Assembly (NCBI GenBank): GCA_041737355.1
Contig: JBGSRW010000008.1
Span: 191,061 to 255,060 of the forward strand
Source of the DNA: Patescibacteria group bacterium
GTDB lineage: Bacteria; Patescibacteriota; Patescibacteriia; XYB2-FULL-38-15
DNA length: 64,000 nt
Direction: 5' to 3'
Position numbers and translations under genes: made by a program. Numbering within the stretch: the first letter of the stretch is position 1; each line of letters begins with the position of its first letter. The notes under the pieces were generated by a model that made no database searches, had not been told where the DNA came from, and worked only from the letters and a program-made list of their open reading frames with translations. Shown here one piece after another: positions 2,847 to 60,835 of this stretch.

Positions 2847-4601
2847 TTATTTAACGCTTTTGATTGATATATCTTCAGCTATCACTTCTGGCTCTTTCGC
2901 GGCGGAAAAATCAAAAAGATCGGTTTGTTTTTTTTCGTAACCGTCCTTAGTCACGGTAAGATAAAATTTGCTCTTACCCACCATAAAATTATACCGTCCA
3001 CGGCCGTCGGCCACCTTTGAATCGAGAAGTTTATCATAGGGCATAGCGAAAATCCGGAGAACCGCTCCCGGGACCGGTTCGTTTTCTTTTTCCGCGCGGA
3101 CCAGCCCCCAATTTTTTGGAGCTTTTACCGTAGCGAAGCGGCGGAAAAAAAGATAGACGGCAATTCCTAAAAAAAGCAAAAGACCGACGAACCAAGACGG
3201 TTTTATTATATAAGAAATAAATCCGAGGGCAGGACCGGCTAAAGCTACATATCCTTGAATTCTATGCCAGCGGTCTTTTTTAACGATCGCGGAATTTTCC
3301 AAATCTTTCGCAGTCGGATCAAGCGGGATATTCGGAGTAATCACGGCTCCTTCGGCCCCGACTTCAATCGTTTCCCCATGATATAAATCTAAATATTGAC
3401 CTTCTTCTTTTTTGCCTTTCGTGAAAACGCTTGGAAAATTAAAATTATTCTTAGCAGCTTCCAGGCGGTATTTTCCGGCAGGAACCAAAAAGGAAAAACT
3501 CCCCGCCTTGTCGGTTACTTCGCTTGCTAAAATCCTTCCGCTTTCCGCTTCGCGCAATCTGACAATAGCCAAATCCTCGGGAAGGCGCGAGAGGGAATTG
3601 TAAACCGTTCCCCAGGCTTTCCTCTTCCGTCTCCTGAATAAAAGCAGCGGCTGGCTGATAAAAAACAAAAGGTACCGCAAAAAATCGACGGAAAGAGTGG
3701 CTTGGGCGGCGAACGCCGAATTGGCTACCGCAACGGCGGCGGCGGCCGGAGCGACGCCTTTTTCGGCTATAGCTTCAACAGTCGGATTATCCAAAAAAGA
3801 ATTTCCACCGGAAGCCGAGATTCTTATTGCTACCGTTTCCCATTTTCCGGAACCTCCGGCCGAGGCGACTTTGACAAGGCCGATTCCCCTGACCCACCAC
3901 TCGTCCATAACTACACTCGTCGATGAGGCGGGAAAATTTATTGAAGGGTCTGACGTGCCGGCAGACCCTCTCCCCGACGCCGTCGGGAATTTTATCCCCG
4001 GCATAGACATATCAATGGAACTTTCTACCCTTATCTTCAGGGCCACGTAAGTGCCGGCGGGAACAGTTATTTTTTCTTCCTTGACCACCTTGTTTGTGGA
4101 TTTAACGGTCATTTTAATTCCGCCGAAACCGCCGGGCATTTCCGCTCCTTCAAATTTAGATGACATGGTATATTTAGTGGTCCAGACCGAACCAACTTTG
4201 ACGTCTTTCGGCATTAAATCCCCTTCCACACCTTCCGTATCGCTTCTCATCTCCACTCCTCCCGTTCCCGAAGTCAAATTCATGTATGTATCGGTTGTTA
4301 TACGACCGTTCTCGCAAAATAGATTTTGCGTCATTGTCATGCCTTTTTTTGTGCCGAAAATATATTCTATTTTGGCCGAGCCGGTAGCCGTTTCAAGAAC
4401 TTTCATGGTGTATGAACTTTCCCCGCCGGCTCCGGAATTTCTATATTCAATTTCGTCCCCCGCCCGGAGCGGAAAATAAGGATTATCGCACATATCTCCA
4501 GCCGCCCTGATTTTTTGAAAGGGAAAAACGAAACCGCAACAGGTAATTAGAATCACCCCCGCCAGGAAATGAAGACTTGTCTTAAGGTTCTCTTTTTTCA
4601 T
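2847..4601 (-). CDS. Secreted/membrane-anchored protein with two carboxypeptidase-regulatory-like beta-sandwich segments
   Basis: 584 aa. N-terminal signal/TM (LHFLAGVILITCCGFVF), internal TM helices. Segments like LAIVRLREAESGRILASEVTDKAGSFSFLVPAGKYRLEA and AVLRIFAMPYDKLLDSKVADGRGRYNF resemble CarbopepD_reg folds. Confidence 0.45.
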   Translation of the reverse strand: MKKENLKTSLHFLAGVILITCCGFVFPFQKIRAAGDMCDNPYFPLRAGDEIEYRNSGAGGESSYTMKVLETATGSAKIEYIFGTKKGMTMTQNLFCENGRITTDTYMNLTSGTGGVEMRSDTEGVEGDLMPKDVKVGSVWTTKYTMSSKFEGAEMPGGFGGIKMTVKSTNKVVKEEKITVPAGTYVALKIRVESSIDMSMPGIKFPTASGRGSAGTSDPSINFPASSTSVVMDEWWVRGIGLVKVASAGGSGKWETVAIRISASGGNSFLDNPTVEAIAEKGVAPAAAAVAVANSAFAAQATLSVDFLRYLLFFISQPLLLFRRRKRKAWGTVYNSLSRLPEDLAIVRLREAESGRILASEVTDKAGSFSFLVPAGKYRLEAAKNNFNFPSVFTKGKKEEGQYLDLYHGETIEVGAEGAVITPNIPLDPTAKDLENSAIVKKDRWHRIQGYVALAGPALGFISYIIKPSWFVGLLLFLGIAVYLFFRRFATVKAPKNWGLVRAEKENEPVPGAVLRIFAMPYDKLLDSKVADGRGRYNFMVGKSKFYLTVTKDGYEKKQTDLFDFSAAKEPEVIAEDISIKSVK

Positions 4602-4605
4602 AAAA

Positions 4606-5256
4606 TTATTTTTTTTCTTTTTTAAAAACCAGGTAGCTGTAAATTACTGTAATGGCGGCAGCCGATAAAACGCTTGATATTAAAACGATGAAACTTGCCA
4701 CTCCGCCAAAAAATGCGGCTAAAAAACTGATAACCCCGGCAACAGTAAAAATCTTTCCGCCGAAATAGTGCGTCTTTTTCCAATTTTCGTCGGAGACAAG
4801 CGTCCATGGGGTTCGGATACCGATGAAAAAATTCCTTTTAAGTTGCGGCAAAATCCAGCCGATAAAGCAAAAGAGCAAGGAAAGCGGGATGGCGAATACC
4901 AAATTTATTCCGGGCGGTGCGGATCGCATCGAGGCGTAAACCAAAAAGGCGTGAATGTAAATAAAGAAAAAAATCAAAAAAATCTTGAAATATCCGTACG
5001 GTTTGGCAAATGATTCATAGTTTTTCCGGAGAGGATCAACCGCCGGCAAAAAAGACATCAGAAGATAGAAGAATAAAGCTATGCCGGGCGTCAGGAATAA
5101 ATTGATATATTTCGAACCCCACCCGTCAACTTCCCCTTTAATATTCCAATGAGTGGGAACCTTGTCCGGCAAAGACGGGATAAGGACAAAACTGGAAACA
5201 AGAACGAGAAGGAGGAGGGCCAGTATCAGCCAGTCAATTTTTTTCCAAAATTTCAT
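4606..5256 (-). CDS. SdpI/YhfL-like (DUF1648) integral membrane protein
   Basis: 216 aa, 5-6 TM helices. N-terminal motif PSLPDKVPTHWNIKGEVDGWGSK is typical of the SdpI immunity-protein family. Confidence 0.55.
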   Translation of the reverse strand: MKFWKKIDWLILALLLLVLVSSFVLIPSLPDKVPTHWNIKGEVDGWGSKYINLFLTPGIALFFYLLMSFLPAVDPLRKNYESFAKPYGYFKIFLIFFFIYIHAFLVYASMRSAPPGINLVFAIPLSLLFCFIGWILPQLKRNFFIGIRTPWTLVSDENWKKTHYFGGKIFTVAGVISFLAAFFGGVASFIVLISSVLSAAAITVIYSYLVFKKEKK

Positions 5257-5312
5257 AGTTTTATAACTTAAAATTGATTAAACTATTCAGCTATTATATC
5301 ACCAAATACGCC

Positions 5313-5341
5313 TTGACAAAAACGGCTCCGGGGAATAAGTT
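5313..5341 (+). promoter_or_regulatory. Candidate sigma-70-like promoter (TTGACA-N17-TAAGTT) at left edge of GC-rich cassette A
   Basis: TTGACA at 5313-5318, 17-nt spacer, TAAGTT at 5336-5341. GGAGGAGAGG RBS and ATG follow at 5370. Confidence 0.35.
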
Positions 5342-5369
5342 TAATCTTGGAAAGATAAGGAGGAGAGGC

Positions 5370-5795
5370 ATGGAAGAGAACGGACATGAAGGCGAAGGCC
5401 TTTTCAATTTTGCCTTCGAACAGTTTGAGTACCACCGGAAAAACAACCCGGAAATTACCAAGGCTATCGACGAATTTTGCTGCGGCGCCGGACGAAACGA
5501 ATCGGCGCGGGTGATGTTCCCGGTCTTCTACGCCTTGAGGAGTATCGGTGAGGACGGCGCGTCTGTTCCCCGCGTCTCGGCTGATTCGGCCCAAAAGGCC
5601 AAGGACGAACTTCGCGGAGCCGGAGAAGACGTTCTCGAGCTTCCGATATTCGATGAATTCCGCGGATCAGTCCGCCACTTCACCTTTTTCCTTGATGTTT
5701 CGGTAAGGGAAGAAGAACCGAACCGGAAGGCGAAGCTGCTCTTCGCCACCATCCTACGCATGATCCAAACCGAAAAAATGAGACGATCCGGCTAG
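5370..5795 (+). CDS. Hypothetical protein (GC-rich cassette A, gene 1)
   Basis: ATG at 5370 with strong RBS aaggaggagagg. The ORF-track start at 5274 lies in AT-rich sequence upstream of the promoter, so 5370 is preferred. About 141 aa, GC-rich codon usage unlike neighbours. Confidence 0.5.
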   Translation: MEENGHEGEGLFNFAFEQFEYHRKNNPEITKAIDEFCCGAGRNESARVMFPVFYALRSIGEDGASVPRVSADSAQKAKDELRGAGEDVLELPIFDEFRGSVRHFTFFLDVSVREEEPNRKAKLLFATILRMIQTEKMRRSG

Positions 5796-5851: not shown

Positions 5852-5859
5852 TTTGCCTA

Positions 5860-5888
5860 TTGACAAAACAAACAAAATGTCCTAAGGT
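5860..5888 (+). promoter_or_regulatory. Candidate promoter TTGACA-N17-TAAGGT
   Basis: TTGACA 5860-5865, 17-nt spacer, TAAGGT 5883-5888. RBS gaaaggaggg and ATG at 5917. Confidence 0.35.
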
Positions 5889-5916
5889 TTAGTGTCCATT
5901 CCGAAAGGAGGGCGAA

Positions 5917-6384
5917 ATGGCAAGTCCAAGCGCCGAAAGGCGCGAACACTGGCTCATGAACAGGTTCTACGAGAAGGTGACTGTCCTAAGGGACACGAAG
6001 TCTTGCGCAGCCAACTGGCTTGATGACTTCAGGGACAGTTTCGCGAAAATCTTCGGGGCCGACCCGACCAAGCTTTGGGATATCATGGCTTTCGACGCGG
6101 GTATTTACCTCATGCTTGAAACGGTCGGTAAGATGGAGGCCGAACGCCTCCTCCCGATGATCAGCAAATATGCCTATGAACAGGCCAAGCGTGAATGGGA
6201 CGGATCCGACGCGCGCGTCATGGTTCAGCGCGAAATGACCTTCGCTATGAACACTTCGCTGTGCGGAATCCTCGAATTCTTCAGCGCAACCCTGGATGGG
6301 CTGCCGCTCGAGAACGAAGGCGGCCGCGCCCACTGCTACAACGAGCTGGCGAAACTTTTCAGGATGATCCGGCTCTCGCGCTAG
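5917..6384 (+). CDS. Hypothetical protein (GC-rich cassette A, gene 2)
   Basis: 155-aa ORF with strong RBS. Followed by hairpin gcatcccctcgcgaggatgc plus a T-run at about 6413-6445. Confidence 0.5.
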   Translation: MASPSAERREHWLMNRFYEKVTVLRDTKSCAANWLDDFRDSFAKIFGADPTKLWDIMAFDAGIYLMLETVGKMEAERLLPMISKYAYEQAKREWDGSDARVMVQREMTFAMNTSLCGILEFFSATLDGLPLENEGGRAHCYNELAKLFRMIRLSR

Positions 6385-20576: not shown

Positions 20577-21860
20577 TTAATGTGTCGCGCAGGTCATGCA
20601 AGGATCGTAAGCGCGAACCATCATATTGATTTTCCACTTTCTGTCGCGCTCGTCTTTGACCCTCGCTTCGCTTAAATATTTTTTTAAATCGTTTTCCAAA
20701 TTGTCCAAAAATTGGGCGGTCGGCGTAATGATGTTGCAGGCGCGAATCACCCCGTATTTGTCGATTTTGTAATAATGATAAAGCGTTCCGCGCGGTGCCT
20801 CGGTGGCTGCCAGCCCTTCGCCATTTTTCATTGTATATTTCACGGATAAAATTCTTGATTTTTCCTTAAGATATTCTCCAAGCAGTTTTTTAACTTCCTC
20901 AACGCAGCTAACTAATTCCACCGCCTGGGCGTAAATATTGTGGAAAGTATTATAAGTCAAAACTTTTTCGCCCGCCGATTTTTCAAAAAACGGCAAAAAC
21001 TTTTTTGCTTCGCTGCCGAGATTTTTATGGCTCAAATTAAGCCGGGCAATCGCCCCGAGCATAAAACTTTTTCCCTCGTGGCTGGCGCGTTTTGTCGGGT
21101 CGTCTTCGGATTGTTTTTCTGAAAGTTCTTTATAAAATTCTTCCACTGAAGTTTTCGGCTGAACGCTTGAACCCATTTTCCCGTCGTAAAAAGCGTACTC
21201 GCGCGGCGAAACTAGTCCAGCAAATTCAACCTTGCGTTCGTATTTCGGATAATCAAGGGCGCGGAAAAATTTTGCCACGCTGATTGCCGCCGCCAAAACT
21301 TCATCCGCCTCGTCAATTAACTCCTGCAGCAATTTATCGTCGGGAATTTTCCGGAAACCGCCGATTTCCGTGGCTAGCAAATGCATATCGCGCCCGCCGA
21401 CCACGTCTTTTATTTTATTGCCAAAATCACGGATTAAAATAATCTGTTTGGCGAGATCTGGATATTTTTTAATCAAATCAATATCGCTCTCGTATTTAAA
21501 AAAGTCCGACAAGGACAAAAAGAAAAGATGGGCGGCGTGGCTCTGGATAGGCTCTGCTAAATCTAAAACTTTCCTTAGTCGCTCTGCCTGCGGTGTAATT
21601 TTCACGCCAAAGGCCTGCTCGATCGCCTTGATACTTGTAAGATTATGGGCGACTGAGCAGATTCCGCAGATGCGCGAAGTAACAATCGGCGCTTCGATAA
21701 AATGACGATCGAGAATTATTGACTCGATGAGCCGGGCTCCAATTTTTATTTTAATCTTGGCGCTTGTGATATCGCCCCGGAGCATATCGGCAAAAAAACT
21801 GGCGTGTCCCTCGATTTTCGCAAGATGTGAAATTTTTATTTTCATAATACTATTCCTCAA
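20577..21860 (-). CDS. hydA: [NiFe]-hydrogenase large (alpha) subunit, group 3-like
   Basis: N-terminal RICGICSVAH (RxCGxCxxxH) and C-terminal DPCMTCATH (DPCxxCxxH) Ni-Fe ligand motifs. 427 aa is typical of cytoplasmic group 3 enzymes. Confidence 0.9.
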   Translation of the reverse strand: MRNSIMKIKISHLAKIEGHASFFADMLRGDITSAKIKIKIGARLIESIILDRHFIEAPIVTSRICGICSVAHNLTSIKAIEQAFGVKITPQAERLRKVLDLAEPIQSHAAHLFFLSLSDFFKYESDIDLIKKYPDLAKQIILIRDFGNKIKDVVGGRDMHLLATEIGGFRKIPDDKLLQELIDEADEVLAAAISVAKFFRALDYPKYERKVEFAGLVSPREYAFYDGKMGSSVQPKTSVEEFYKELSEKQSEDDPTKRASHEGKSFMLGAIARLNLSHKNLGSEAKKFLPFFEKSAGEKVLTYNTFHNIYAQAVELVSCVEEVKKLLGEYLKEKSRILSVKYTMKNGEGLAATEAPRGTLYHYYKIDKYGVIRACNIITPTAQFLDNLENDLKKYLSEARVKDERDRKWKINMMVRAYDPCMTCATH

Positions 21861-22608
21861 GTTTCAAAAAATCGTCTTCTGCGCCGTATGTTTCCATCAC
21901 TTCGGCCAGATATTTTTTTCCGACTAATTTTTCCAAATTTTTTATATGCTTCTTAATCTGCGGTCCGGATCCAGGAAGCGGCCCGCGGCAGCCGTAGCAG
22001 AATCTTTTGCTCCTAAGACAAACCGCCTTACATCCGCCAAGCGTAATCGGCCCCAAACATGGTTCACCTTTTTGCAGGAGGCACTCATATCCTAGCGTCT
22101 GGCATTCAAAACAGATTGGGCGGACGGGAATTTTCGGTTTCCGGCCAAAAGCTAAATCAGAAACTATCCGGTAAAATTCGTCCTGGTCAATCGGGCAACC
22201 GGGAACGGCGTAATCAACTTCTACCACCTTCCAGAGCGGCACGACGGCCGGATTTTCAATCCGCTGGTATTTTGGGTAAACATATTTAACTTTTTCTTTT
22301 TTCCCATGTTCGGTATAATTTTTTATTTCCTGAACACCGCCCAAATGGGCACAGGAACCGATCGCTACTAAAATTTTCGATTTCTTCCGCAATTCTTTTA
22401 GATATTTAAAATCTTCATGGGTGAGCGGCGTGCCTTCAACCAACGCCACGTCGTATTTCGGTCTCTCCCGCTTTTCCTCGGCCCAGGCAAAATTTCCCAA
22501 ATCAAAAATCTGAAAAAGATCGAGCATTCTTTTCCCCAAATTCAGGATCTCAACCTGGCATCCCTCGCAGCAAGTCATGCTGGCAATCGCAAGCGTCGGT
22601 TTTTTCAT
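21850..22608 (-). CDS. hydD: [NiFe]-hydrogenase small (delta) subunit
   Basis: Starts MKKPTLAIASMTCCEGCQVE. Cys clusters for proximal/medial FeS clusters. Overlaps hydA by 11 nt. Confidence 0.85.
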   Translation of the reverse strand: MKKPTLAIASMTCCEGCQVEILNLGKRMLDLFQIFDLGNFAWAEEKRERPKYDVALVEGTPLTHEDFKYLKELRKKSKILVAIGSCAHLGGVQEIKNYTEHGKKEKVKYVYPKYQRIENPAVVPLWKVVEVDYAVPGCPIDQDEFYRIVSDLAFGRKPKIPVRPICFECQTLGYECLLQKGEPCLGPITLGGCKAVCLRSKRFCYGCRGPLPGSGPQIKKHIKNLEKLVGKKYLAEVMETYGAEDDFLKLEE

Positions 22609-22611
22609 AAA

Positions 22612-23115
22612 CTATTTTAATAATTCAACTATTTTTTCTCCAAAACTTCGCGCCGCGTCCGGTCCTGAAGCGGTAATAATTTTCCCGTCGGCCTCTACTG
22701 GCGCGCCGGTGTATTCCGCCCCGCCCGCCGCCAGAGTTTCTTCCTCGTCGGGCGTCGAAGTCGCTTTCACCCCCGAGAGAAGGCCGGCTTTGGCCAAAAT
22801 CGCCGGAGCAAGGCAAATTGCCGCGACAATTTTCCCGGCATCAAAAAACTCCCGCGCCAGATCATGAACCCTCTCGTCATCAAGATAAACTTCCGCGCCC
22901 CGTCCGCCAACCAAAACTATCGCCGAAAAATCATCAAGCTCCGCGTCGTCAACCGTCAGATCCGGCATTACTGTTCCGCCGAGCCGCCCTTTTGCCAAAG
23001 TCAATTCCTGGCTCGCGACCTCGACATCAATCCCTTTTTTTATAAAAACATCCCTCGGTTCAAAAAATTCCTCATCACGAAAATCTTTTTGCGCGACAAC
23101 CATTAAAATTTTCAT
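22612..23115 (-). CDS. DJ-1/PfpI family protein
   Basis: 167 aa. AICLAPAILAKAG nucleophile-elbow region typical of DJ-1/PfpI. Confidence 0.75.
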   Translation of the reverse strand: MKILMVVAQKDFRDEEFFEPRDVFIKKGIDVEVASQELTLAKGRLGGTVMPDLTVDDAELDDFSAIVLVGGRGAEVYLDDERVHDLAREFFDAGKIVAAICLAPAILAKAGLLSGVKATSTPDEEETLAAGGAEYTGAPVEADGKIITASGPDAARSFGEKIVELLK

Positions 23116-23121
23116 AAAAAT

Positions 23122-24006
23122 CTATTTTATAAAAATTGAAAACAAAAATCCCAGAACCGAGAAAAAAGCCAAGGGCGGCAGGGCCGGCATGGGCGTTTTT
23201 TGCGGCTGGGTCGTGAAAAGGACATGGAGCACCACCAAACCGACAAGCGATCCGGCAATCGTGAAAACCGCGCTCTCCAAACCGTAGGAAATCGCAGAAA
23301 CCGCCAAAATCAAGGGCAAAATCAAATCCCCTGTTCCCAAAAACATAAACTCGTTGCCCGGCGCGACCTTGGACAAATTAACCGCCCAGCCCCGCCACTT
23401 CATTGGAAAAATCAGAGCCATGATTACTCCCCTCACGACCAGCTCTTTGAACATCATGACCATTTGGGCCGTTTTATAAACCGCGATGTAATCGTAAATG
23501 GAAATCAAAAATAAAATAACAAGAATCGCCGAAATAGGCAGAGACAAGCCAAAGGCGGCCCCAATGCCGGCAACCCCTAAAATAACCGCCAGATTATGGA
23601 ACCAGACGCGAGGCAGGACAAACTGGAGAACGACAAAAATTATTGCCAAGCCAACCGAAAATATTGTCGGCAAAAAAATACTGAAAACCGTCTGGGATCC
23701 TAAAAAAATTATCAAAGCGAAAATTCCCCTGAAAAAAGAACCGCCTTTTATAAATCTCAGGGAAATGATCAGAAGAATCGTGGCAATAACAAAAGAAATC
23801 AAGAATTCCCAAAGAGAGGTGGCTATTTTTATTTCTGCGAATGCCTCATAGCTCATCAAGCGCATGGCGGCCCAAAGCCCGATGATCTGAACCAGGCCGA
23901 AAACAACCAATTCCTGAAATAAAAATTTGCCTTTGAAGACGGGCGAAACGGGCATGATTTTAATCTTAAATTCTGGTTGATTAAACTTAACTTTATTATA
24001 GCACAT
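23122..24006 (-). CDS. Presenilin / signal-peptide-peptidase-like GxGD intramembrane aspartyl protease
   Basis: 294 aa, about 8-9 TM helices. YD motif (ISIYDYIAV), GxGD motif (FLGTGDLILPL) and a C-terminal PAL motif (MPALPPLAFF), in the order characteristic of the A22 family. Confidence 0.55.
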   Translation of the reverse strand: MCYNKVKFNQPEFKIKIMPVSPVFKGKFLFQELVVFGLVQIIGLWAAMRLMSYEAFAEIKIATSLWEFLISFVIATILLIISLRFIKGGSFFRGIFALIIFLGSQTVFSIFLPTIFSVGLAIIFVVLQFVLPRVWFHNLAVILGVAGIGAAFGLSLPISAILVILFLISIYDYIAVYKTAQMVMMFKELVVRGVIMALIFPMKWRGWAVNLSKVAPGNEFMFLGTGDLILPLILAVSAISYGLESAVFTIAGSLVGLVVLHVLFTTQPQKTPMPALPPLAFFSVLGFLFSIFIK

Positions 24007-24042
24007 TTCGGGAACCTCTTAAAACTGGTATAATTTTATCGT

Positions 24043-24669
24043 ATGCTATTAGAAAACAGGGCTGAAGCAGGCCAAAAATTGGCTGAATTGCTGAAACAAT
24101 TCAAAGACGCCAAAGAAACAATAATCATCGCCTTGCCGCGCGGCGGGGTTGTAGTCGGCTTCGAAGTGGCAAAAGAACTAAATCTCCCGCTGGATATTGT
24201 CGTGCCGCGAAAAATCGGCGCGCCGGGCAATCCCGAATTTGCCATCGGCGCCATAACAGAGTCGGGCGAAATGATTTTGAATGAAGAAGTTTTTGGAATT
24301 TCGGAAAGTTATTTGAAAAGCGAGACGGAAAAGGAAAGGGCCGAGGCGGAACGGAGATTAAGACTCTACCGCGGCAGCCGTCTGCCGCTTGATTTAGAAA
24401 ACAAAACCGTTATCCTGATTGACGACGGCCTGGCCACCGGGCTTACCATGCGGGCGGCTATTTCGAGCGTCAAAAAAATGAAGGCGAAAAAAATTATTGT
24501 CGCCGTGCCAATTGCTCCGCCCGAGACAGTGGAATTGATAAAAAAAGAAACTGATGAAATATTTTATCTTGAGGCTCCCCTGCTCTTCGGCGCCGTCGGG
24601 GCGTTTTACAAAGAATTCGGCCAGACGACTGATGAAGAAGTGATTGATTTGTTGAAAAAATCTGAATAG
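24043..24669 (+). CDS. Type I phosphoribosyltransferase-domain protein
   Basis: 208 aa. PRPP-binding loop VILIDDGLATGLTM. Two PRTase-fold halves. Confidence 0.7.
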   Translation: MLLENRAEAGQKLAELLKQFKDAKETIIIALPRGGVVVGFEVAKELNLPLDIVVPRKIGAPGNPEFAIGAITESGEMILNEEVFGISESYLKSETEKERAEAERRLRLYRGSRLPLDLENKTVILIDDGLATGLTMRAAISSVKKMKAKKIIVAVPIAPPETVELIKKETDEIFYLEAPLLFGAVGAFYKEFGQTTDEEVIDLLKKSE

Positions 24670-24721
24670 TTTGGAAAGTAAAAACTCTCTGTCATCCTTC
24701 GCTTCGCTCCTCCAGAATGAC

Positions 24722-24752
24722 AAAAAAACTCCGCCGCTCCGCGGAGTTTTAA
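24722..24752. terminator. Bidirectional terminator hairpin
   Basis: aaaaaaactccgc-cgc-tccgcggagtttt. A-run on one side and T-run on the other, so it can serve both the + strand PRTase gene and the - strand paralog gene. Confidence 0.5.
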
Positions 24753-24878
24753 AGTTTATCCCCCAGACTTGTCCTTGCAGGTGTGGAGGTAAAAAAATCC
24801 CGCATGAAACTTGCGTAACACGCGGGAAAGCAGCAGTTTTGTCCAAGAGACCTAGAAGGGCCTAGGTTTCAAGAACCA

Positions 24879-25487
24879 CTACTTGTGGACGGCCAAGAAC
24901 CGGTAATGATCGCTCCATTCGATGCCGACCCAGAGTACGAAAAGGTGCCGCTCGTTGAGGCGCCAGTCGAGACAGGCGAAGAAGCGGCCGCCGTGCCGAT
25001 CCATGAAGTGCGAGCCGAGAGCCACGATCCCGAACTCCTTCTGGAGCTCGGGACGAGCGGCGCCGAGGGCCAAGAGCTCTTCGATCTTGGCCGGACGGAG
25101 GCCGCGACGGGCGAGTTCCGCGAGAATTTCGTCGGTCGAGGCCATCTTGTTCATGTGAACGAGGACGAGCTCGCGGAGGACCTTGCCCTCGCCCGAGATC
25201 GGGAAGAACCCGGGGGTGATGTCATCGTTCACGAAGTCGTAGCGGCCGGAGGCGATCATTGCCTCGAGGCTCTGACCATAGTCGACCTCGACCTTGAAGG
25301 TCGCGTCGGAAGGGAGGGCCGCCTTCACCATGGCGATTTCCGCCTGGCCCTTGACGAGAGGCAGCAACCGCGCGAGCAGGTCTCCTTCGGAGAGCCGCTT
25401 CACGTCGGCGTTGGTCCAGCCGTTCCGGCCGAAAGCCATTGCCAGCTCATGGGCCTGGCCAGTTGTCATCTTGAACTCGTCACTCAT
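24879..25487 (-). CDS. Hypothetical protein, paralog family member 1 (GC-rich cassette B)
   Basis: 202 aa. Shares the block GRYDFVNDDIT ... RGLRPAKIEELLALGA.RPE.QKEFGIVALGS ... RFLAV with the protein at 42762-43395. Confidence 0.5.
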   Translation of the reverse strand: MSDEFKMTTGQAHELAMAFGRNGWTNADVKRLSEGDLLARLLPLVKGQAEIAMVKAALPSDATFKVEVDYGQSLEAMIASGRYDFVNDDITPGFFPISGEGKVLRELVLVHMNKMASTDEILAELARRGLRPAKIEELLALGAARPELQKEFGIVALGSHFMDRHGGRFFACLDWRLNERHLFVLWVGIEWSDHYRFLAVHK

Positions 25488-25547
25488 GACTTGTTCTCTT
25501 TCTTTCTCGCAACCGATTCAATCCGAACCCCGTTGCTGTCTTTGGCC

Positions 25548-25564
25548 GAGAGAAATTCCCAGCC
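25548..25564 (-). promoter_or_regulatory. Conserved 17-nt leader motif (minus-strand GGCTGGGAATTTCTCTC), copy 1
   Basis: Identical 17-mer also present at 43522-43538, upstream of the paralogous gene. Lies in the 5' leader of 24879-25487. A candidate minus-strand TTGACA sits at 25597-25602. Confidence 0.4.
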
Positions 25565-25659
25565 AACGAATTATTAAATCATTCTTTGGATATTTTGTCA
25601 ACACCTTTTTAAATAAAAAAGAGCTAGCTTCAAAAGCCAGCTCAAGGAAAAGAAAAGAA

Positions 25660-26418
25660 TCAGTTGCGCTTGCCGTTCTCGGCTATCTTCCGGCAGGCGG
25701 TGAGAGTCGCTTCGGTCCAGTGTTCAAGCCGGCGCGCTTCATTGAGCGTGATGACTTCGACTACCCTGCCCCAGTGAAAAGCAACCAAGTCGCCAGCTCT
25801 GATACGCGGAATAATCTGCGGATCGCGCCGGACAAGACGCTTTTTTTCTTTTTCTTCCAGCTCTGCCAGGAATCTGTTACCCTCGTGCTTCAGAGATCTT
25901 GCCGAAACGGTAAGCTCCGGCCCCTTGCCAACCGAGACGACTTTTCCCCAGCCGATGCGACAAAGCTCCCAGCCGACCGATTCGCGATCCACCTGACCAG
26001 AAATTCCGCCGATTGCGAGAACATGAAAACTGTGGTGCGGCCGGTGCTGATAGTGGACGTGGTCCGTGGTTTCTTTCGCTGCCGCCTCGGTCATCCGGCC
26101 CTCGCCGACAAAACCGAATATCAGCTCCCTCAGATCTTCCGGCCGGACACGGCCGAGGAGTTCGTTGCCAATCCAGTAGGCGTCAACCACGCGGTCGTCA
26201 AGCCAGTCTTCGATTCCGTTTGCCGCGGCAATGAGCTTCAGGTAGGCCGTGGCCGCGGTAAACTGCCCCAAGAGCCGCCTTGCATGATTGTCGTCGACCT
26301 TGCTCTTGGTCGTGAGATACTGGTATAGCTTGCCCTTCTCACTGCCCCGCGGCCCGCAAAGGCCGAGTTCGTTCGGGTAAAGCGCGTAACGCGCCGCCCG
26401 CTCGTATTTCTTTCCCAT
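25660..26418 (-). CDS. Hypothetical His-rich protein translationally coupled to hypC (GC-rich)
   Basis: 252 aa. ATG is 1 nt after the hypC stop, and the hypC 3' end (gggggagaggaggaaaaaa) provides its RBS. Contains a His cluster HVHYQHRPHHSFH. GC-rich, unlike hypC. Confidence 0.5.
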   Translation of the reverse strand: MGKKYERAARYALYPNELGLCGPRGSEKGKLYQYLTTKSKVDDNHARRLLGQFTAATAYLKLIAAANGIEDWLDDRVVDAYWIGNELLGRVRPEDLRELIFGFVGEGRMTEAAAKETTDHVHYQHRPHHSFHVLAIGGISGQVDRESVGWELCRIGWGKVVSVGKGPELTVSARSLKHEGNRFLAELEEKEKKRLVRRDPQIIPRIRAGDLVAFHWGRVVEVITLNEARRLEHWTEATLTACRKIAENGKRN

Positions 26419-26652
26419 CTATTTTTTCCTCCTCTCCCCCTGATTTTGGAATTCGTCCAGGACGGCAAGGCAATTTTTCGCCTCCTCTTCGGAAATTTTT
26501 TTCATTCCAATGCTGCCTTGCACCAATATCCAATCACCTTTTGCCGCTTCCGGCAAGAGTGAAGTGTCAATATCAAAAACTTTGCCGCCATTTTTAACGG
26601 CGGCTTTATTTTTCTTGATTTTTTCAATTTTACAAGGAATACCGAAGCACAT
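26419..26652 (-). CDS. hypC: Hydrogenase maturation chaperone HypC/HupF
   Basis: 77 aa starting MCFGIPCKIEKI (the essential N-terminal Cys2 motif MC[LF][GA]IP). Confidence 0.8.
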   Translation of the reverse strand: MCFGIPCKIEKIKKNKAAVKNGGKVFDIDTSLLPEAAKGDWILVQGSIGMKKISEEEAKNCLAVLDEFQNQGERRKK

Positions 26653-26678
26653 GATGTAAAATTTCTAATTCCTGATAT

Positions 26679-27593
26679 CTAATGGCTTGTTGTTATATCT
26701 ATTTCCATCTTTTTAAATTTTGAAAATAAACCCAGAACCGCGGCTACTCCCAAAAACATCAGCAAGCTTCCGCTAAAAATCTGCCAGTCGAAAATTCCTT
26801 TTTGCGCCATTTCTAATAAACTTGTAATCGGCGCGCCGAGCGACAAGATGCAGACAGCCGACGAAACCGGAATATATTTCAGGCCTGCATACCAGGTCAA
26901 AACATAACCTAAAAGAAAAATTGCCGTTATCCAAATCCAGCTTAATTCCGCTGCACCCATGCTTCCGAGCAGCTTCATCTGCCCGGTCGCCGCCCAAAAA
27001 ATCAAAATAAATAAAAATCCGAAAAACATTCTCCCCCAGGCAACAATTTTCGGTGAAATATTTTCCAGGGCTTTTTTTGAAATGATTTGTTCGGCGGACC
27101 AAAATAGTGTGGCAGCCAAGACCAGTAATTCACCGTAGCCGAATTGAAATCCATCAAAAATTTTTAAAAGCAGGGCGCTGCCGATCAAAATAAAAAACGC
27201 CCCGGTCATCAGCTTTTTGCTTACTTTCTCCTTCAAAAATATCGCCTCCAAAACTATCACGTAAATAAAAAGTGTTTTGTGGATAAAAGATGTACTCGCC
27301 CCGCTTGTTAGGGATAAACCTTTGAAAAAAAACAGAAAAGGAATGCTTCCGCCGAACAGACCAATCAAGATTAAAGTCAACCATTCTTTAACCTTAAATT
27401 TCGCCAACAATTTCCACTCCCTGAATAAAAAAATCAAGCAAAGCAAAACAACTGCCACGAGCAAATTTTTCAAACCGGCAAAAATATACGGACTAATAAC
27501 CTTAACCCCGAATTGATTAATAAAAATAGAAACACCGGAAATAACTGCTGTTCCCAGAACCAATAAATATCCTTTTTTGGTATTCATAATCAC
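26679..27593 (-). CDS. EamA/DMT-family transporter
   Basis: 304 aa, 10 TM helices in two 5-TM halves. Confidence 0.7.
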   Translation of the reverse strand: MIMNTKKGYLLVLGTAVISGVSIFINQFGVKVISPYIFAGLKNLLVAVVLLCLIFLFREWKLLAKFKVKEWLTLILIGLFGGSIPFLFFFKGLSLTSGASTSFIHKTLFIYVIVLEAIFLKEKVSKKLMTGAFFILIGSALLLKIFDGFQFGYGELLVLAATLFWSAEQIISKKALENISPKIVAWGRMFFGFLFILIFWAATGQMKLLGSMGAAELSWIWITAIFLLGYVLTWYAGLKYIPVSSAVCILSLGAPITSLLEMAQKGIFDWQIFSGSLLMFLGVAAVLGLFSKFKKMEIDITTSH

Positions 27594-42761: not shown

Positions 42762-43395
42762 TTAGTCAGAGGGCCAAACTTCGCAGAGCCTAAGGGTCTT
42801 TTTGGGAACAGCCAGAAATCGCTCTTCCTGATCCCATCCCCCGAAGCCCGAGTGCAGGACCAAAAACCGCTTTCCCTCACCGTTCCCGCAGAGGCCCGCG
42901 AATTTGCTGCTAATGTCCGGTTTTCCTCGGCACGAACCGAGGGCCACGATCGGAAACTTCTTCTGCTCCTCCGGGAACCTCGCCCCGAGAGCAAGAAGCT
43001 CCTCAATCCTGGCGGGCCGAAGACCGCGATGCTCCATCTCCGCGAGAACCTCGTCGGTTCTCACCATCTTATCCGGCCCCGGGTAGACAAGGATGAGCTT
43101 GCGCTCGGCCTTGCCCTCGCCTGTGATGTCAAATTGGGAGAAGAGGTCTTCGCACGTGGGCTTCTCCTCGTTACAAACTGGACAGATTTCGTCGGTGATC
43201 TCCTTGTCCACCAAGTCGTAGTGGCCAGCGGCGATCATCTCAGGAAGATCGATGAAGTAATTCACTACCACCTTGAAGCTCCGGTCGGCGAACTGACCCG
43301 GATTCCGCAAGAAGACCTGAAAGGCCTCACGCGTCACCCGGCCGGACTCGATCTGGTGGTGGAGTTCGGAAATCTGCTCGATCGTCGGCTTTGCC
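42762..43395 (-). CDS. Hypothetical protein, paralog family member 2 (GC-rich cassette D)
   Basis: Start taken at MAKPTIEQ with RBS gcaaggagaaaagaaa. GHYDLVDKEIT ... RGLRPARIEELLALGARFPEEQKKFPIVALGS ... RFLAV, paralogous to 24879-25487. Confidence 0.5.
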
Positions 43396-43521
43396 ATTTT
43401 CTTTTCTCCTTGCATCTTTCGGTATTCGCCAGGGCATCCCCACATTATTGTTGGGACAGCCTTTTGATAAACCGACGAGACGCTTGCTCCGCACTCCTGG
43501 CAAAGAGTGAAGAACCTAGCT

Positions 43522-43538
43522 GAGAGAAATTCCCAGCC
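43522..43538 (-). promoter_or_regulatory. Conserved 17-nt leader motif (minus-strand GGCTGGGAATTTCTCTC), copy 2
   Basis: Identical to 25548-25564. A candidate minus-strand promoter TTGACA (43637-43642) -N17- TATTAT (43614-43619) lies upstream. Confidence 0.4.
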
Positions 43539-43658
43539 TTGTTTTGAAGGTCATAAAACCGTCAAAATAAGGCTAGAAATTCAACTTTAAAAGAACCATT
43601 TTACTAACGTTTTATAATAACAAATTTTCAATGTTTTGTCAATAGTAATTCTCGATAA

Positions 43659-45794
<2,136 letters not shown>

Positions 45795-53006: not shown

Positions 53007-54551
53007 ATGCATCTTGTTCCGGTCATCGGCCTGGAAATCCATATCCAGCTCAAAACAAAATCAAAAATGTTCTGCGGCTGCGACAATACCGGGGAAAACC
53101 AGCCGCCGAATACGACTGTCTGCCCGGTATGCATGGGCCATCCCGGTACTTTGCCGGTTATAAACGGGCAGGCGGTGGAATGGGCGGGCCTCGCGGCTCT
53201 GGCTTTAAATTGCAAAATCCAGGATTACTCAAAATTCGACCGGAAACAATATTTTTATCCCGATCTCCCGAAAGGATATCAAATTTCCCAATACGACAAG
53301 CCTGTCTGTCAGGACGGCCATCTTGAAATAGATATCCCAACGAAAGACGAAACGAAACAACCGGCTTCCGCGAAAATAAGGATAAAAAGAATTCATCTCG
53401 AAGAAGACGCGGCAAAATTAACCCATTCTGATGACGGAAAAAACAGCCTCGTCGATTACAACCGTTCCGGAACACCCCTTTTGGAAATTGTTACCGAGCC
53501 TGATTTGCATTCGCCGCTTGAAGCAAAAATTTTCGTCCAGGAAATACAACAAATCGCCCGCTATCTCGGGATATCCGAAGCGGATATGGAAAAAGGGCAT
53601 TTGCGCTGCGACGCCAACATTTCTCTGAAAGAAGTCTTGGATAATCCGGCTAAAGAAAAGGGGTTCCCTAAACTTAATCCCAAAACTGAAATAAAAAATT
53701 TGAACTCTTTCCGCGCCGTTGAGAGGGCTCTTGAATACGAAATAAAAAGACAAATCGAACTTTGGGGAAAGGGAAAACCGCCGGAAATAGAAACAACCCG
53801 CGGCTGGAACGACGTAAAACAAATTACCGAGGAGCAACGGACAAAAGAAGCGGAAAACGATTACCGTTATTTCCCGGAACCGGATCTTCCGCCGCTTGAT
53901 CTCTCCAGACTGCGCGATAAAGTTATTCCGTCCCTTCCCGAACTTCCCCGCGCCAAAAGAATAAGATTTATAACCCAATACGAGTTTACTCCGGAAGAAG
54001 CGAAAATTTTAACCGAAGACAAAAAATGGGCCAATTATACTGAAAATGTTATTTCCGAATTACAATCATGGCTTATTTCGCTTCAAGAGGTGGAGGGCAC
54101 GGAAAAAGAAATATGGGAAAAACACAAACATAAAATAACCCGCCTCCTTGCCGGATGGCTTGTAACTAAACTCGGTGGCCTGATGGCCGATAATAAAATA
54201 GATATCCGCCGCCTGAAAATAACTCCGGAAAATTTCGCGGAATTTATTACCCTGATTTACCAGAACAAAATTTCCGGGCCAACAGCAATGAAAATTTTGG
54301 AAGAGATGCTTCTTACCGGCGGTGACCCGTCCCAGATCATGGAAAGTAAAAACCTCGGCCAGATCAGCGATACTGACGAAATGGAAAAAATAATAGACGG
54401 AATTATCGCGGAAAATCCAGACGAAGTAAAAAGTTACAAAGCTGGCAAAACCAACCTGATACAATTCTTCATAGGCCAAACCATGAAAAAAACCCAGGGA
54501 AAGGCCAACCCAAAAATTGCTGAAGAAATCATTAAAAAGAAACTCGGATAA
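53007..54551 (+). CDS. gatB: Asp/Glu-tRNA(Asn/Gln) amidotransferase subunit B
   Basis: VIGLEIHIQL, CGCDN...CPVCMGHPGTLPV, C-terminal YqeY-like domain. Confidence 0.9.
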   Translation: MHLVPVIGLEIHIQLKTKSKMFCGCDNTGENQPPNTTVCPVCMGHPGTLPVINGQAVEWAGLAALALNCKIQDYSKFDRKQYFYPDLPKGYQISQYDKPVCQDGHLEIDIPTKDETKQPASAKIRIKRIHLEEDAAKLTHSDDGKNSLVDYNRSGTPLLEIVTEPDLHSPLEAKIFVQEIQQIARYLGISEADMEKGHLRCDANISLKEVLDNPAKEKGFPKLNPKTEIKNLNSFRAVERALEYEIKRQIELWGKGKPPEIETTRGWNDVKQITEEQRTKEAENDYRYFPEPDLPPLDLSRLRDKVIPSLPELPRAKRIRFITQYEFTPEEAKILTEDKKWANYTENVISELQSWLISLQEVEGTEKEIWEKHKHKITRLLAGWLVTKLGGLMADNKIDIRRLKITPENFAEFITLIYQNKISGPTAMKILEEMLLTGGDPSQIMESKNLGQISDTDEMEKIIDGIIAENPDEVKSYKAGKTNLIQFFIGQTMKKTQGKANPKIAEEIIKKKLG

Positions 54552-59041: not shown

Positions 59042-60835
59042 CTATTTTCTTTTTTCAATTTCCTTTTTTAATTTTTCAATAAATTTCTTCAAGGTCATGG
59101 ACACCGTTTTCTGTTTACCGCGGATTCTGACGTTCAAGTTTTTCCCGCCCATTTCCTTGTCCCCTATTACAAGTATGTAAGGAGTTTTGTTCTTCTCCGC
59201 TTTTCTTATTTTATATCCGACGGTTTCGTTGAAATCGTCGACATGAACCCGCAAGCCTTCTTCCTTTAAAATTTTAGCCAGCTTGAAGGACGGCTTAACG
59301 TGCCGCTTACCGACGGGTATAACATCGACCTGGACCGGGGCGAGCCAAGCTGGAAACGCTCCGGCGTAATGTTCAATCAAAAATCCGATTAATCTTTCGT
59401 GGGTTGAAAGAGGCGCCCGGTGAATGCAAATCGGGGTTTTATCTTTATTGTCAGCATCTTTGTATTTTAGTCCGAATCTTTCCGGCACAGCGAAGTCGAC
59501 CTGGTTAGTTGCCAAGGTAAATTCCCGGCCGATGGCACTCCAGATTTGCACATCAATTTTAGGGCCATAAAAAGCGGCTTCGTCGGCAACTTCTACAAAT
59601 GGAATTTTTCCCTTTTTCATCGCCCCGCGGACCATATTTTCCGTCTTTTCCCACAACTCGGGATTGTTAATATATTTCTTTCCCAATCCTTCTTTGCTAT
59701 GGAGAGAAAGACGCATGACATATTTCTTGATGCCAAAAATCTTAAAATACTTTACGTATAATTTTATAACTCCCATAAACTCATCTGCAAACTGCTCTTC
59801 GGTGCAATAAATATGGGCGTCGTTCATTGAAAGCATCCTGACGCGCATCAAGCCAAAAAGTTCTCCGCTCTTCTCGTATCGGTAGCAGGTTCCATATTCC
59901 GCGAGGCGTAAGGGGAGATCGCGGTAGCTCTTCGGATCGGCCGCATAAATCTGATGATGATGCGGGCAATTCATTGCTTTAAGGTAATAAGTTGATTTTT
60001 GTCCACCCTCTTCGGTCATCACCATCGGGGGAAACATGCTTTCTTTATAATAAGGAAGGTGCCCAGAAGTAAGATACATCTCTTCTTTCGCCAAGTGTGG
60101 CGTCCGGACTTGCACATAGCCGGCCTCGGTCTCAGCTTCATGGGCCAATTTTTCAAGCTGCTCAATGATTACCGCGCCATTCGGCAACCAAAGCGGCAAT
60201 CCAGGACCGACCAGATCGCTAAAAGCAAAAATTTTCAGATCCTTTCCGATTTTCCGATGGTCTCTTTTTTCCGCTTCCTCGCGCATTTTTAAATATTCAT
60301 CCAGCTCTGATTGCTTCAGGAAAGCTACACCATAAACGCGCTGAAGCATCGGGCGTTTCTCGTCGCCGCGCCAATAGGCTCCCGCAACGGAAGTCAATTT
60401 AAAAATACCCAGTTCCTTCGTCGAGGAAACGTGAGGCCCCCGACAAAGATCTGTAAATTTTCCCGTTTTATAAATCGTGACAACCTCTCCCATTTTTTCC
60501 ATATCCCCGCCCTCTCCTTTTGTCCCCTCTCTCAATAATTCAAGTTTATAATCCTGCTTGTATTGCTCAAACATTTTTATTGCTTCGTCCTTCGAAATTT
60601 CCATTTTTTCAAATGGCAGATTCTTTTCCGCGATCGCCTTCATCTTGGCCTCAATTTTTGGCAAATCGGTTGCGATTAACGGTTTATCAAGTTCAAAATC
60701 GTAATAAAAACCGTTTTCAACGGCCGGCCCCACTCCGAATTTAGCCCGGGGAAACATTTCCAAAATAGCCGCCGCTAAAAGATGCGCCGTTCCGTGCCTA
60801 ATAATTTCTAATTTTTCTTTATCCATATAAAACAA
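59042..60835 (-). CDS. thrS: Threonyl-tRNA synthetase
   Basis: HRDLPLRLAEYGTCYRYEKSGELFGLMRVR class II motif 2 region, C-terminal anticodon-binding domain. Lacks the long N-terminal TGS/editing extension (597 aa). Confidence 0.9.
   Translation of the reverse strand: MFYMDKEKLEIIRHGTAHLLAAAILEMFPRAKFGVGPAVENGFYYDFELDKPLIATDLPKIEAKMKAIAEKNLPFEKMEISKDEAIKMFEQYKQDYKLELLREGTKGEGGDMEKMGEVVTIYKTGKFTDLCRGPHVSSTKELGIFKLTSVAGAYWRGDEKRPMLQRVYGVAFLKQSELDEYLKMREEAEKRDHRKIGKDLKIFAFSDLVGPGLPLWLPNGAVIIEQLEKLAHEAETEAGYVQVRTPHLAKEEMYLTSGHLPYYKESMFPPMVMTEEGGQKSTYYLKAMNCPHHHQIYAADPKSYRDLPLRLAEYGTCYRYEKSGELFGLMRVRMLSMNDAHIYCTEEQFADEFMGVIKLYVKYFKIFGIKKYVMRLSLHSKEGLGKKYINNPELWEKTENMVRGAMKKGKIPFVEVADEAAFYGPKIDVQIWSAIGREFTLATNQVDFAVPERFGLKYKDADNKDKTPICIHRAPLSTHERLIGFLIEHYAGAFPAWLAPVQVDVIPVGKRHVKPSFKLAKILKEEGLRVHVDDFNETVGYKIRKAEKNKTPYILVIGDKEMGGKNLNVRIRGKQKTVSMTLKKFIEKLKKEIEKRK

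Follow-up and report, generated by a model that had tools for sequence, protein, structure and literature searches.

Why should two genes that lie 18 kb apart carry the same 17 nt in leaders that cannot otherwise be aligned? The question was raised by contig JBGSRW010000008.1 of a Patescibacteria group bacterium (assembly GCA_041737355.1), of which we analyzed one window, that is, a single stretch of 64,000 nt at positions 191,061–255,060 of the forward strand. The 17-mer GAGAGAAATTCCCAGCC (plus strand) is found there in front of two related minus-strand genes, designated W1 and W2. A preliminary description of this DNA had proposed that the 17-mer is either a regulatory RNA element or a protein-binding operator specific to the gene family. 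The results presented below favor an RNA element. Two conserved, covarying and mutually exclusive helices, H1 and H2, lie on the sense strand in front of this family, whose members are related to variable proteins of diversity-generating retroelements (DGRs), and the 17-mer contributes to both.

A pattern search of the window located the 17-mer at exactly two sites, 25548–25564 and 43522–43538, as first reported. Both copies were on the template side of minus-strand genes, one upstream of each paralog, and the distance from the end of the 17-mer to the ATG was 60 nt for W1 and 124 nt for W2 (ATG at 43397). They form direct repeats on the same strand and flank the housekeeping genes prfA, prs and ftsW. 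Identity between the two sites reached 19 of 21 nt (repeat family D13), and the flanks beyond were otherwise unalignable. No third site was found in the window with up to 3 mismatches allowed. IMG/VR gave 10 exact matches, of which 9 came from a single unrelated family of phage genes and the tenth from elsewhere; this amounts to two independent unrelated contexts and about the chance rate. A weak third copy at 59511–59530 (80% identity) was inside a 597-aa open reading frame (ORF) and formed no hairpin; it was taken as chance. Exact repeats of 16–21 nt were also present at unrelated positions of the window (D9, D14, I4, I18–I20, I23–I25).

On the coding strand, the 17-mer and the next 4 nt form the stem-loop H2, with a stem of 8–10 bp, whose 5′ arm and loop, together with half of the 3′ arm, are supplied by the 17-mer (Table 1). 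The core of the W1 hairpin can be written as (UU)GGCUGGGA-AUUUC-UCUCGGCC(AA). The W1 and W2 hairpins differ at 2 positions, both in the 3′ arm, and pairing is kept at each (U.G to U-A and G-C to G.U). Folding of the leaders, as the preliminary description had recommended, predicted H2 in both of them, and the whole W2 leader had a minimum free energy (MFE) of −77.5 kcal/mol (z = −5.07 against shuffled controls). In homologous loci of other genomes (numbered with the prefix L), the 5′ arm GGCUGGGA(A) was kept, usually after an A-rich tract, and loops and 3′ arms varied. No match to the 17-mer was found at the leader positions of 80 homologous loci with up to 4 mismatches allowed, which ruled out conservation of the whole 17-mer sequence across the family. 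The expectation that the exact 17-mer would recur in homologous or syntenic loci was not borne out; the 5′ arm and the pairing are what was retained. Identity over the full 17 nt is a within-genome feature, since paralog pairs in other genomes (L037/L056) likewise share H2.

A covariance model of H2 was built from 4 sequences and used to search ~840 kb. Twelve matches were obtained at E<0.02, all of them in leaders of family genes, and those within the window were the two reported sites only. Weaker matches were located elsewhere, at 22772–22801 in the window (E=0.043–0.23) and on the minus strand of L161 (E=0.026). Plain MAFFT alignment placed H2 out of structural register, and a model-guided alignment was used instead. 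In this alignment of 12 sequences 96.9% of cells were paired, and both sides had changed in 4 of the 8 pairs. The covariation score was 0.498 versus 0.345 in shuffles, none of 500 shuffles reaching 0.498, and pairing collapsed when the partner was slid by one to three columns. In 11 of 12 cases H2 was more stable when folded from the sense strand than from the antisense strand (−13.6 versus −5.7 kcal/mol in W1 and −11.0 versus −5.5 kcal/mol in W2), which argues for RNA over a DNA palindrome. As DNA, the arms match at only 6 of 8 positions. H2 was ruled out as an intrinsic terminator, as no U-tract follows it in the W1 or W2 leader and no terminator-like site was present there.

Full-length leaders contain, in order, a consensus promoter (TTGACAAA...TGnTATAAT), a boxA-like sequence, H1, H2, a variable structured segment and a ribosome-binding site. 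Of 78 leaders, 18 contained the boxA-like pattern; its frequency in the leaders was 0.77 per kb, compared with 0.037 per kb elsewhere, an enrichment of ~20-fold. The W1 leader contains none. For H1, 8 compact leaders were aligned with plain MAFFT and folded with RNAalifold; the consensus had 21 pairs with 90.2% of cells paired, and 12 of these pairs had changed on both sides. The 3′ arm of H1, AAGGCUGGGAAU, takes in the first 10 nt of the coding-strand 17-mer, and the 5′ arm of H2 is at the same time the 3′ base of H1. Because this pivot strand is common to both helices, H1 and H2 are mutually exclusive. The pivot strand of L166 has C in place of a U, and each of the two strands that can pair with it has G at the corresponding position. 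Duplex energies were −17 to −25 kcal/mol for H1 and −7 to −15 kcal/mol for H2, H1 always being the stronger. In the comparison of homologous leaders the pairing of both helices was conserved, with covariation, and the whole 17-mer sequence was not.

Downstream of H2 the leaders are of different types. In a consensus of the P3 hairpin of W1 with L162 and L165, the inner stem contained 2 compensatory pairs. Over ~130 nt downstream of H2, the W2 leader is homologous to those of L161 and L166, and the consensus of its downstream part with these two leaders had 44 predicted pairs, 6 of them with compensatory change. The statement that the leaders around the two copies differ holds for W1 and W2, whose flanks could not be aligned; it missed that each leader is homologous over its whole length to leaders of other genomes, W1 to those of L162 and L165 and W2 to those of L161 and L166.

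Comparison of promoters suggested how the W1 leader arose. The promoters of W1, W2, L161, L164, L165, L166 and L011 are collinear base for base from TTGACA to GTT at positions 35–37. Past GTT the other leaders continue with AGTAAA, the boxA-like sequence and H1, whereas W1 goes straight to GGCTGGG. The closest homologs of W1, L162 and L165, keep the full H1 and share P3 and the ribosome-binding region with W1. The W1 leader is a clean deletion derivative that has lost the boxA-like element and H1 and in which the promoter is fused to H2. Because the deletion joins the promoter to H2, this hairpin would lie at the 5′ end of the W1 mRNA, at or within ~1–3 nt of the end predicted from the promoter and with a single-stranded overhang of at most a few nt.

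The interpretation that we prefer, with a probability of roughly 0.6, is that the 17-mer is part of a cis-acting, bistable leader RNA (H1/H2) of DGR variable-protein genes, which serves processing, stability or control of expression. We infer that the leader element acts in cis on the mRNA. In the mechanism that we propose, GGCUGGGA(A) would be a pivot strand that pairs either upstream, closing H1, or downstream, forming H2. H1, which is much more stable than H2 and is transcribed first, would form initially. It would later be opened up or cut away, for which a double-strand-specific activity of the RNase III type is the most likely agent. The pivot strand would then refold with the downstream strand into H2, which would cap the 5′ end of the mature mRNA and set its stability or expression. 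The W1 leader would be a natural constitutive mimic of the processed form. The identity of the loop and 3′ arm in the two window copies probably results from homogenization within the genome, through gene conversion or a shared genome-specific partner, and is probably not a sequence constraint on the whole family. The 17-mer is a genome-specific version of a broader motif, and the object of interest is the conserved modular leader.

Several points weigh against this interpretation. An exact repeat of 17 nt is by itself not beyond chance in the window; we consider it significant because both copies occupy an equivalent position and strand upstream of paralogs and because the hairpin is conserved in other genomes. 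H1 is in every case by far the stronger helix, and full-length leaders might therefore never adopt H2. Fitting the H2 alignment to a covariance model favors pairing. H2 is known in only ~12–15 distinct instances, several of them related, and ~90% of the family loci carry other leaders. The sequence of the 5′ arm is itself conserved, being GGCUGGGA in most instances, which also fits recognition by a protein or by another RNA. Transcription starts were placed by promoter consensus alone, and the W1 promoter was missed by a strict consensus scan, position 2 of its −10 sequence being T. That the leader is processed, and by RNase III, is pure inference.

Table 1. Features of the W1 and W2 loci and H2 hairpins of homologous leaders. 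Positions refer to the window; promoters, helices and hairpins are predictions.
Feature	Position	Strand	Description
17-mer, copy 1	25548–25564	−	Exact match; coding strand GGCTGGGAATTTCTCTC
17-mer, copy 2	43522–43538	−	Exact match
H2, W1 leader	25542–25566	−	UUGGCUGGGA-AUUUC-UCUCGGCCAA, 10 bp; in MFE and centroid folds; covariance-model score 41.4 bits
H2, W2 leader	43518–43538	−	GGCUGGGA-AUUUC-UCUCAGCU, 8 bp; covariance-model score 44.2 bits
H2, L162			Loop UGG, 3′ arm UUCCUGGCC
H2, L165			Loop AUAGG, 3′ arm UCCCGGCC
H2, L008			GGCUGGAG-AUUUC-CUCCAGUC
H2, L037			GGCCGGAA-AGG-UUCCGGCU
H2, L010			GGCCAAAGG-AUACC-CCUUAGGCC
H1, long hairpin of W2 leader	43518–43586	−	3′ arm UUCAAAACAAGGCUGGGAAU plus outer UCAGCU contains the 17-mer; duplex −20.9 kcal/mol
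W1 promoter	25573–25601	−	−35 TTGACA (25596–25601), 17-nt spacer, −10 TTTAAT (25573–25578); read from the sequence
W2 promoter	43614–43642	−	TTGACA, 17 nt, TATTAT with TG extension; 11 of 12 consensus matches
boxA-like element	43585–43596	−	GTTCTTTTAAAG, near the 5′ end of the W2 transcript; sole pattern match in the window
P3 hairpin, W1-type leader	25509–25536	−	GCAAC...GUUGC closing a variable inner stem, then purine-rich ribosome-binding region
W2 leader, downstream part	43398–43517	−	Two further helical domains, conserved unpaired stretches; ends at AAGGAG ribosome-binding site
W1, 202 aa	24879–25487	−	Homolog of DGR variable proteins with C-type lectin fold; last ~137 nt variable region (VR)-like
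W2, 211 aa from ATG at 43397	42762–43397	−	Same family as W1; VR-like end and canonical stop decayed
W1 3′ flank, conserved	24791–24878	−	TGGTTCTTG..CCTAGG hairpin..GGACAAAACTGCTGC.., then terminator hairpin with T-run; from side-by-side comparison

W1 and W2 share 45% identity over 163 aa (E = 3e-33) and are true paralogs, in agreement with the preliminary description, which did not recognize them as DGR variable proteins. The ATG of W2 corresponds to the start common to homologs beginning with MAKPT or MAKVT. A Pfam scan of W1 and W2 gave no match. Among relatives in a large protein collection, 83 were retrieved, none with a domain annotation, from Patescibacteria lineages (Falkowbacteria, Magasanikbacteria, Uhrbacteria) or under unspecific names. 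Family members share a conserved core (RGLRPAKIEELLALGA..PELQ..FPIVALGS) but vary in their N-terminal modules, and their last ~45 residues, ending in RFLAVRK, are hypervariable. The AlphaFold model of W1 (mean predicted local distance difference test score, pLDDT, 80.8) matched formylglycine-generating enzyme (FGE)-type and C-type lectin folds, among them the DGR variable protein TvpA. This combination of a C-type lectin/FGE-type fold with a C-terminal variable region is the one by which DGR target proteins are recognized.

A link to DGRs was seen in L164. The last 137 nt of its family gene are repeated 479 nt downstream at 89% identity (3426–3562 and 3905–4041), with mismatches at 14 of 35 template adenines and at 1 of 102 non-A sites, and an RVT_1 reverse transcriptase (RT) gene follows the template repeat (4538–5572). 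From this adenine-biased repeat and the RT gene, the L164 locus can be classed as a DGR. Homologous RT genes were found ~1 kb downstream of the family gene in at least 50 of 164 loci. In the 64-kb window, tblastn detected no DGR RT, and no template repeat was found. The VR-like end of W1 differed from the L164 template repeat at 21 of 35 A sites and 17 of 102 non-A sites; the end of W2 had 58 mismatches at the 102 non-A sites and showed no template relation. The 3′ flank of W1 is nearly identical to those of L164, L161, L165 and L166, including an end like the initiation of mutagenic homing (IMH) site and a hairpin, and is shared with active DGR targets. The 3′ flank of W2 has decayed and the canonical stop is lost. 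Since W1 keeps the 3′ elements and an A-biased end and W2 has lost its stop, W1 has the appearance of a remote DGR target or a former one, and W2 that of a paralog in decay.

Further observations were made on the composition of the family genes. In nearly all loci from L001 to L080 they were 10–20 points more GC-rich than the host genomes. The excess was mostly at third codon positions, where the GC content (GC3) was 0.84 in W1 and 0.74 in W2, against ~0.5 in gyrB, prfA and nusG. The adjacent RT gene of L164 looked AT-rich by eye over its first ~25 nt, so the bias may be specific to the target gene. Wrong-strand ORFs were called in GC-rich regions of L186 (6204–6770), where the real gene is on the plus strand behind a type-A leader, and of L164 (3660–4049), where the called minus-strand ORF overlaps the template repeat. 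Small GC-rich family genes and their leaders are easily mis-called in genome annotation. At 5857–6384 the window contains another small GC-rich ORF (155 aa, GC3 0.74) with no Pfam match; its promoter, CTATTGACAAAAC, closely resembles that of W2 (pair I6), and its leader is short and without H2.

Two kinds of leader element other than H1 and H2 were seen. GC-rich palindromic inserts (..CGAGCGGAGCGAAGCGAAGTCGAGAAG.. and related) are present at the apex of H1 in L011, L161, L164 (2800–2876), L165, L180 and L186, and L164 has a 96% complementary copy of its insert just upstream of the RT gene (4473–4548; pair I2). These palindromes look like a small mobile or repeated hairpin element. Other members of the family carry a second, commoner leader motif, GCCUGGGG-hairpin-UGAGGGGC, directly upstream of the ribosome-binding site. 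It was located in L020 (3788–3850), L021 (3729–3790), L023 (3862–3924), L038 (3690–3752), L064 (3732–3794) and over 15 further loci. Its helices are stacked and enclose a conserved GGG/UGA internal loop; 10 of 13 predicted pairs had compensatory change, and it had no Rfam match.

Syntenic loci suggested where the leaders, and the genes behind them, may be exchanged. At the site divergent from gyrB, two relatives with GyrB 93% and 90% identical (L180 2829–4000 and L182 3014–4000, syntenic to window 42762–43763) share with W2 the promoter, the boxA-like element, H1 and the pivot strand (AAAAGAAGGCTGGGAA). Past the pivot strand the rest of the hairpin is not the same, nor is the gene, a shorter one of VR type (146 and 156 aa), whose C-terminus matches the variable region of the family at the profile level only (80% probability). 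A further relative, L184 (GyrB 86% identical), has no cassette at the W2 site. The comparison suggests cassette replacement at a fixed site at the W2 locus. At the W1 site, the relatives L186 and L188 have HypC-DUF6390-PRTase with nothing between. The W1 cassette (~24735–25611), which comprises promoter, H2 leader, gene and 3′ elements, is situated between two terminator hairpins and has TTTAAAA on both sides. It is an insertion relative to the syntenic loci, and the TTTAAAA flanks may be a target-site duplication. Its surroundings (20577–27593) are a NiFe-hydrogenase gene neighborhood with NiFeSe large subunit, Oxidored_q6, DJ-1/PfpI, PRTase, DUF6390, HypC and EamA, as assigned by synteny with the annotated L186 and L188.

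The same kind of boundary was seen between the paralogs L037 and L056 of one metagenome-assembled genome, which are 86–98% identical upstream, 100% identical in H2 and reduced to noise directly after it. In L015 there are two target genes, each with a leader. H2 marks the point at which a conserved upstream module gives way to downstream cassettes that can be exchanged, and the sharp identity break at the hairpin suggests how variable-protein cassettes move between loci.

These breaks raise the question whether the repeat is a recombination junction or portable module, with the edge of H2 as a crossover point for cassette exchange and the 17-nt identity as a gene-conversion tract. Such an origin agrees with the identity profile of L037 and L056, with the module that W2 and its syntenic counterparts share through GGCTGGGAA and no further, with the insertion of W1 between TTTAAAA sequences, and with the fact that the downstream part of the leader changes together with the N-terminal module of the protein. 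It leaves unexplained the compensatory changes in H1 and H2, the G.U pairs and the bias to the sense strand. No recombinase gene was seen adjoining either copy in a search that was not exhaustive, and recombination between direct repeats at this distance would be deleterious because prfA, prs and ftsW lie between them. We regard it as rather unlikely that recombination is what the repeat is for; it is compatible with the RNA reading and does not exclude it. About equally doubtful is an expression platform of the riboswitch or attenuator kind, in which a ligand, a protein or Nus factors would switch between H1 and H2 to control translation, with the downstream strand as anti-Shine-Dalgarno, or transcription elongation, by antitermination that depends on boxA. 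Mutually exclusive covarying helices would fit such a platform, and the pyrimidine-rich 3′ arm, the Shine-Dalgarno-like pivot strand, the enrichment of the boxA-like element at the 5′ end and the conserved unpaired stretches in the downstream part of W2-type leaders point the same way. However, in 11 of 15 leaders the duplexes of the downstream strand with the ribosome-binding region did not surpass shuffled controls, and an anti-Shine-Dalgarno role of that strand was dropped as unsupported. The missing U-tract after H2 also speaks against a platform, as do the retention of H2 in W1 although its boxA-like element and H1 are gone and the lack of any ligand candidate. In homologous DGR loci the part with template repeat and RT apparently has its own −10-like sequence, read by eye, which would make control of read-through unnecessary; read-through from the target promoter into template repeat and RT, considered as a rationale for boxA, was weakened by the same sequence. 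A role of boxA and Nus factors in antitermination is possible on grounds of resemblance only.

The other half of the original proposal, a double-stranded DNA operator for a gene-specific transcription factor, fared poorly. In its favor, the site forms an imperfect palindrome and in W1 overlaps the predicted transcription start; it is also identical within the genome and different between genomes, as if it had co-evolved with a genome-specific regulator. An operator is nevertheless very unlikely because the site does not keep its position relative to the predicted promoters (~+1 in W1, ~70 nt past the start in W2), because the helices make use of G.U pairs and because the structure depends on the strand, the antisense hairpin being much weaker. 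Between genomes it is the pairing, G.U included, that is kept and not the sequence of the 3′ half; the arms, as noted, match imperfectly as DNA, and the pivot strand also pairs, with covariation, with a distant upstream strand. A chance repeat without function could be argued from the other exact repeats in the window and from the unrelated phage contigs in which the 17-mer turns up at about the chance rate. This we find scarcely credible, given two copies on the same strand at equivalent positions upstream of paralogs and a hairpin present, with covariation, in at least 12 independent leaders.

A wider reading of that leader is more speculative, and we put it forward as a tentative idea that may well prove wrong. 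Promoter, boxA-like element, H1 and H2 could together be an undescribed, dedicated regulatory RNA module across Patescibacteria, bistable and setting the timing or amount of the diversified receptor. Its 3′ edge could also be the 5′ homology boundary for swaps of cassettes between loci and genomes, and the CCUGGGG-hairpin-UGAGGGG motif could be a sister class. No known proteins diversify faster than DGR variable proteins, which are particularly frequent in Patescibacteria. If the leader is what we propose, a conserved bistable leader RNA would mean that the expression of diversified proteins is itself controlled. Saccharibacteria, as possible hosts for work on such leaders, are reportedly naturally competent.

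Two further repeats in the window are unrelated to the leaders. An exact 19-nt direct repeat, TACCGTTATTTCCCGGAAC (D14), is present at 45330–45348 in gyrB and at 53862–53880 in a 514-aa ORF (53007–54551), and may be a coding motif shared by two related enzymes. Three diverged 85-nt direct repeats (D1) at 62595–62991 fall within a protein of 493 aa that has thrombospondin type 3 repeats as well as a PKD domain.

The leaders were compared with known systems. Rfam 15 gave no match in the window at the gathering score; in E-value scans of the two leaders the best scores were 21.8 and 19.7 bits against thresholds of 70 and 81, and over 18 homologous loci only tRNA and rRNA were matched. In the literature DGR genes are described essentially as variable repeat, template repeat, RT and accessory genes, and full-text searches found no description of a DGR target-gene leader. 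A DGR survey that includes 126 DGRs of the candidate phyla radiation, the group now called Patescibacteria, makes no mention of a target-gene promoter, leader or non-coding element (PMC5758913). The RT motifs of Rfam that are associated with DGRs (RT-10 etc.) are, like H1 and H2, structured non-coding RNAs in DGR loci; they adjoin the RT gene, between template repeat and RT, and are thought to act in cDNA priming (Weinberg et al. 2017, PMC5737381). The H1/H2 element is situated in the 5′ leader of the target gene, and no Rfam model matches it.

Short identical leader sequences in paralogs of variable proteins, with a sharp identity break, are also a feature of the 5′ untranslated region (UTR) recombination sites of the Mycoplasma vpma/vsa type. 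Unlike those sites, each copy in the window has its own promoter, the two are in direct orientation 18 kb apart with housekeeping genes between, and the covariation is of the RNA type. Inverted copies, a single promoter and an adjacent recombinase, by which phase-variation recombination sites are known, were not seen, and no recombinase domain was found among the neighboring genes scanned.

The resemblance to boxA leaders, such as those of rrn operons and the nut sites of lambda, lies in a strong promoter that is followed after a few nt by a boxA-like sequence (GGUUCUUUUAAAG in W2) and then by stem-loops. For W2 it was judged by eye, from consensus sequences and one rRNA spacer, the boxA upstream of 23S in a related genome being GUUCAUUAACAAUUG. 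In contrast to boxA leaders, the loop of H2, AUUUC, is not a GNRA-like pentaloop of the boxB type, W1 has no boxA-like element, and a single small protein-coding gene follows. With riboswitch and attenuator platforms the leaders have in common a pivot strand shared by two exclusive covarying helices; they differ from them in that no aptamer or ligand was identified, there is no terminator U-tract and anti-Shine-Dalgarno pairing is unsupported. Examples of stabilizing stem-loops at the 5′ terminus and of leaders processed by RNase III include the 5′ UTR of E. coli ompA and the leader of B. subtilis aprE. The W1 hairpin at the predicted 5′ end is like these, and the other leaders have a long, nearly perfect duplex before H2; there is no sequence relationship, and in W2 and the other leaders H2 would come to lie near the 5′ end only through the presumed processing. 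Structured cis-acting 5′ leaders with alternative helices and DGR variable-protein genes are both of known kinds.

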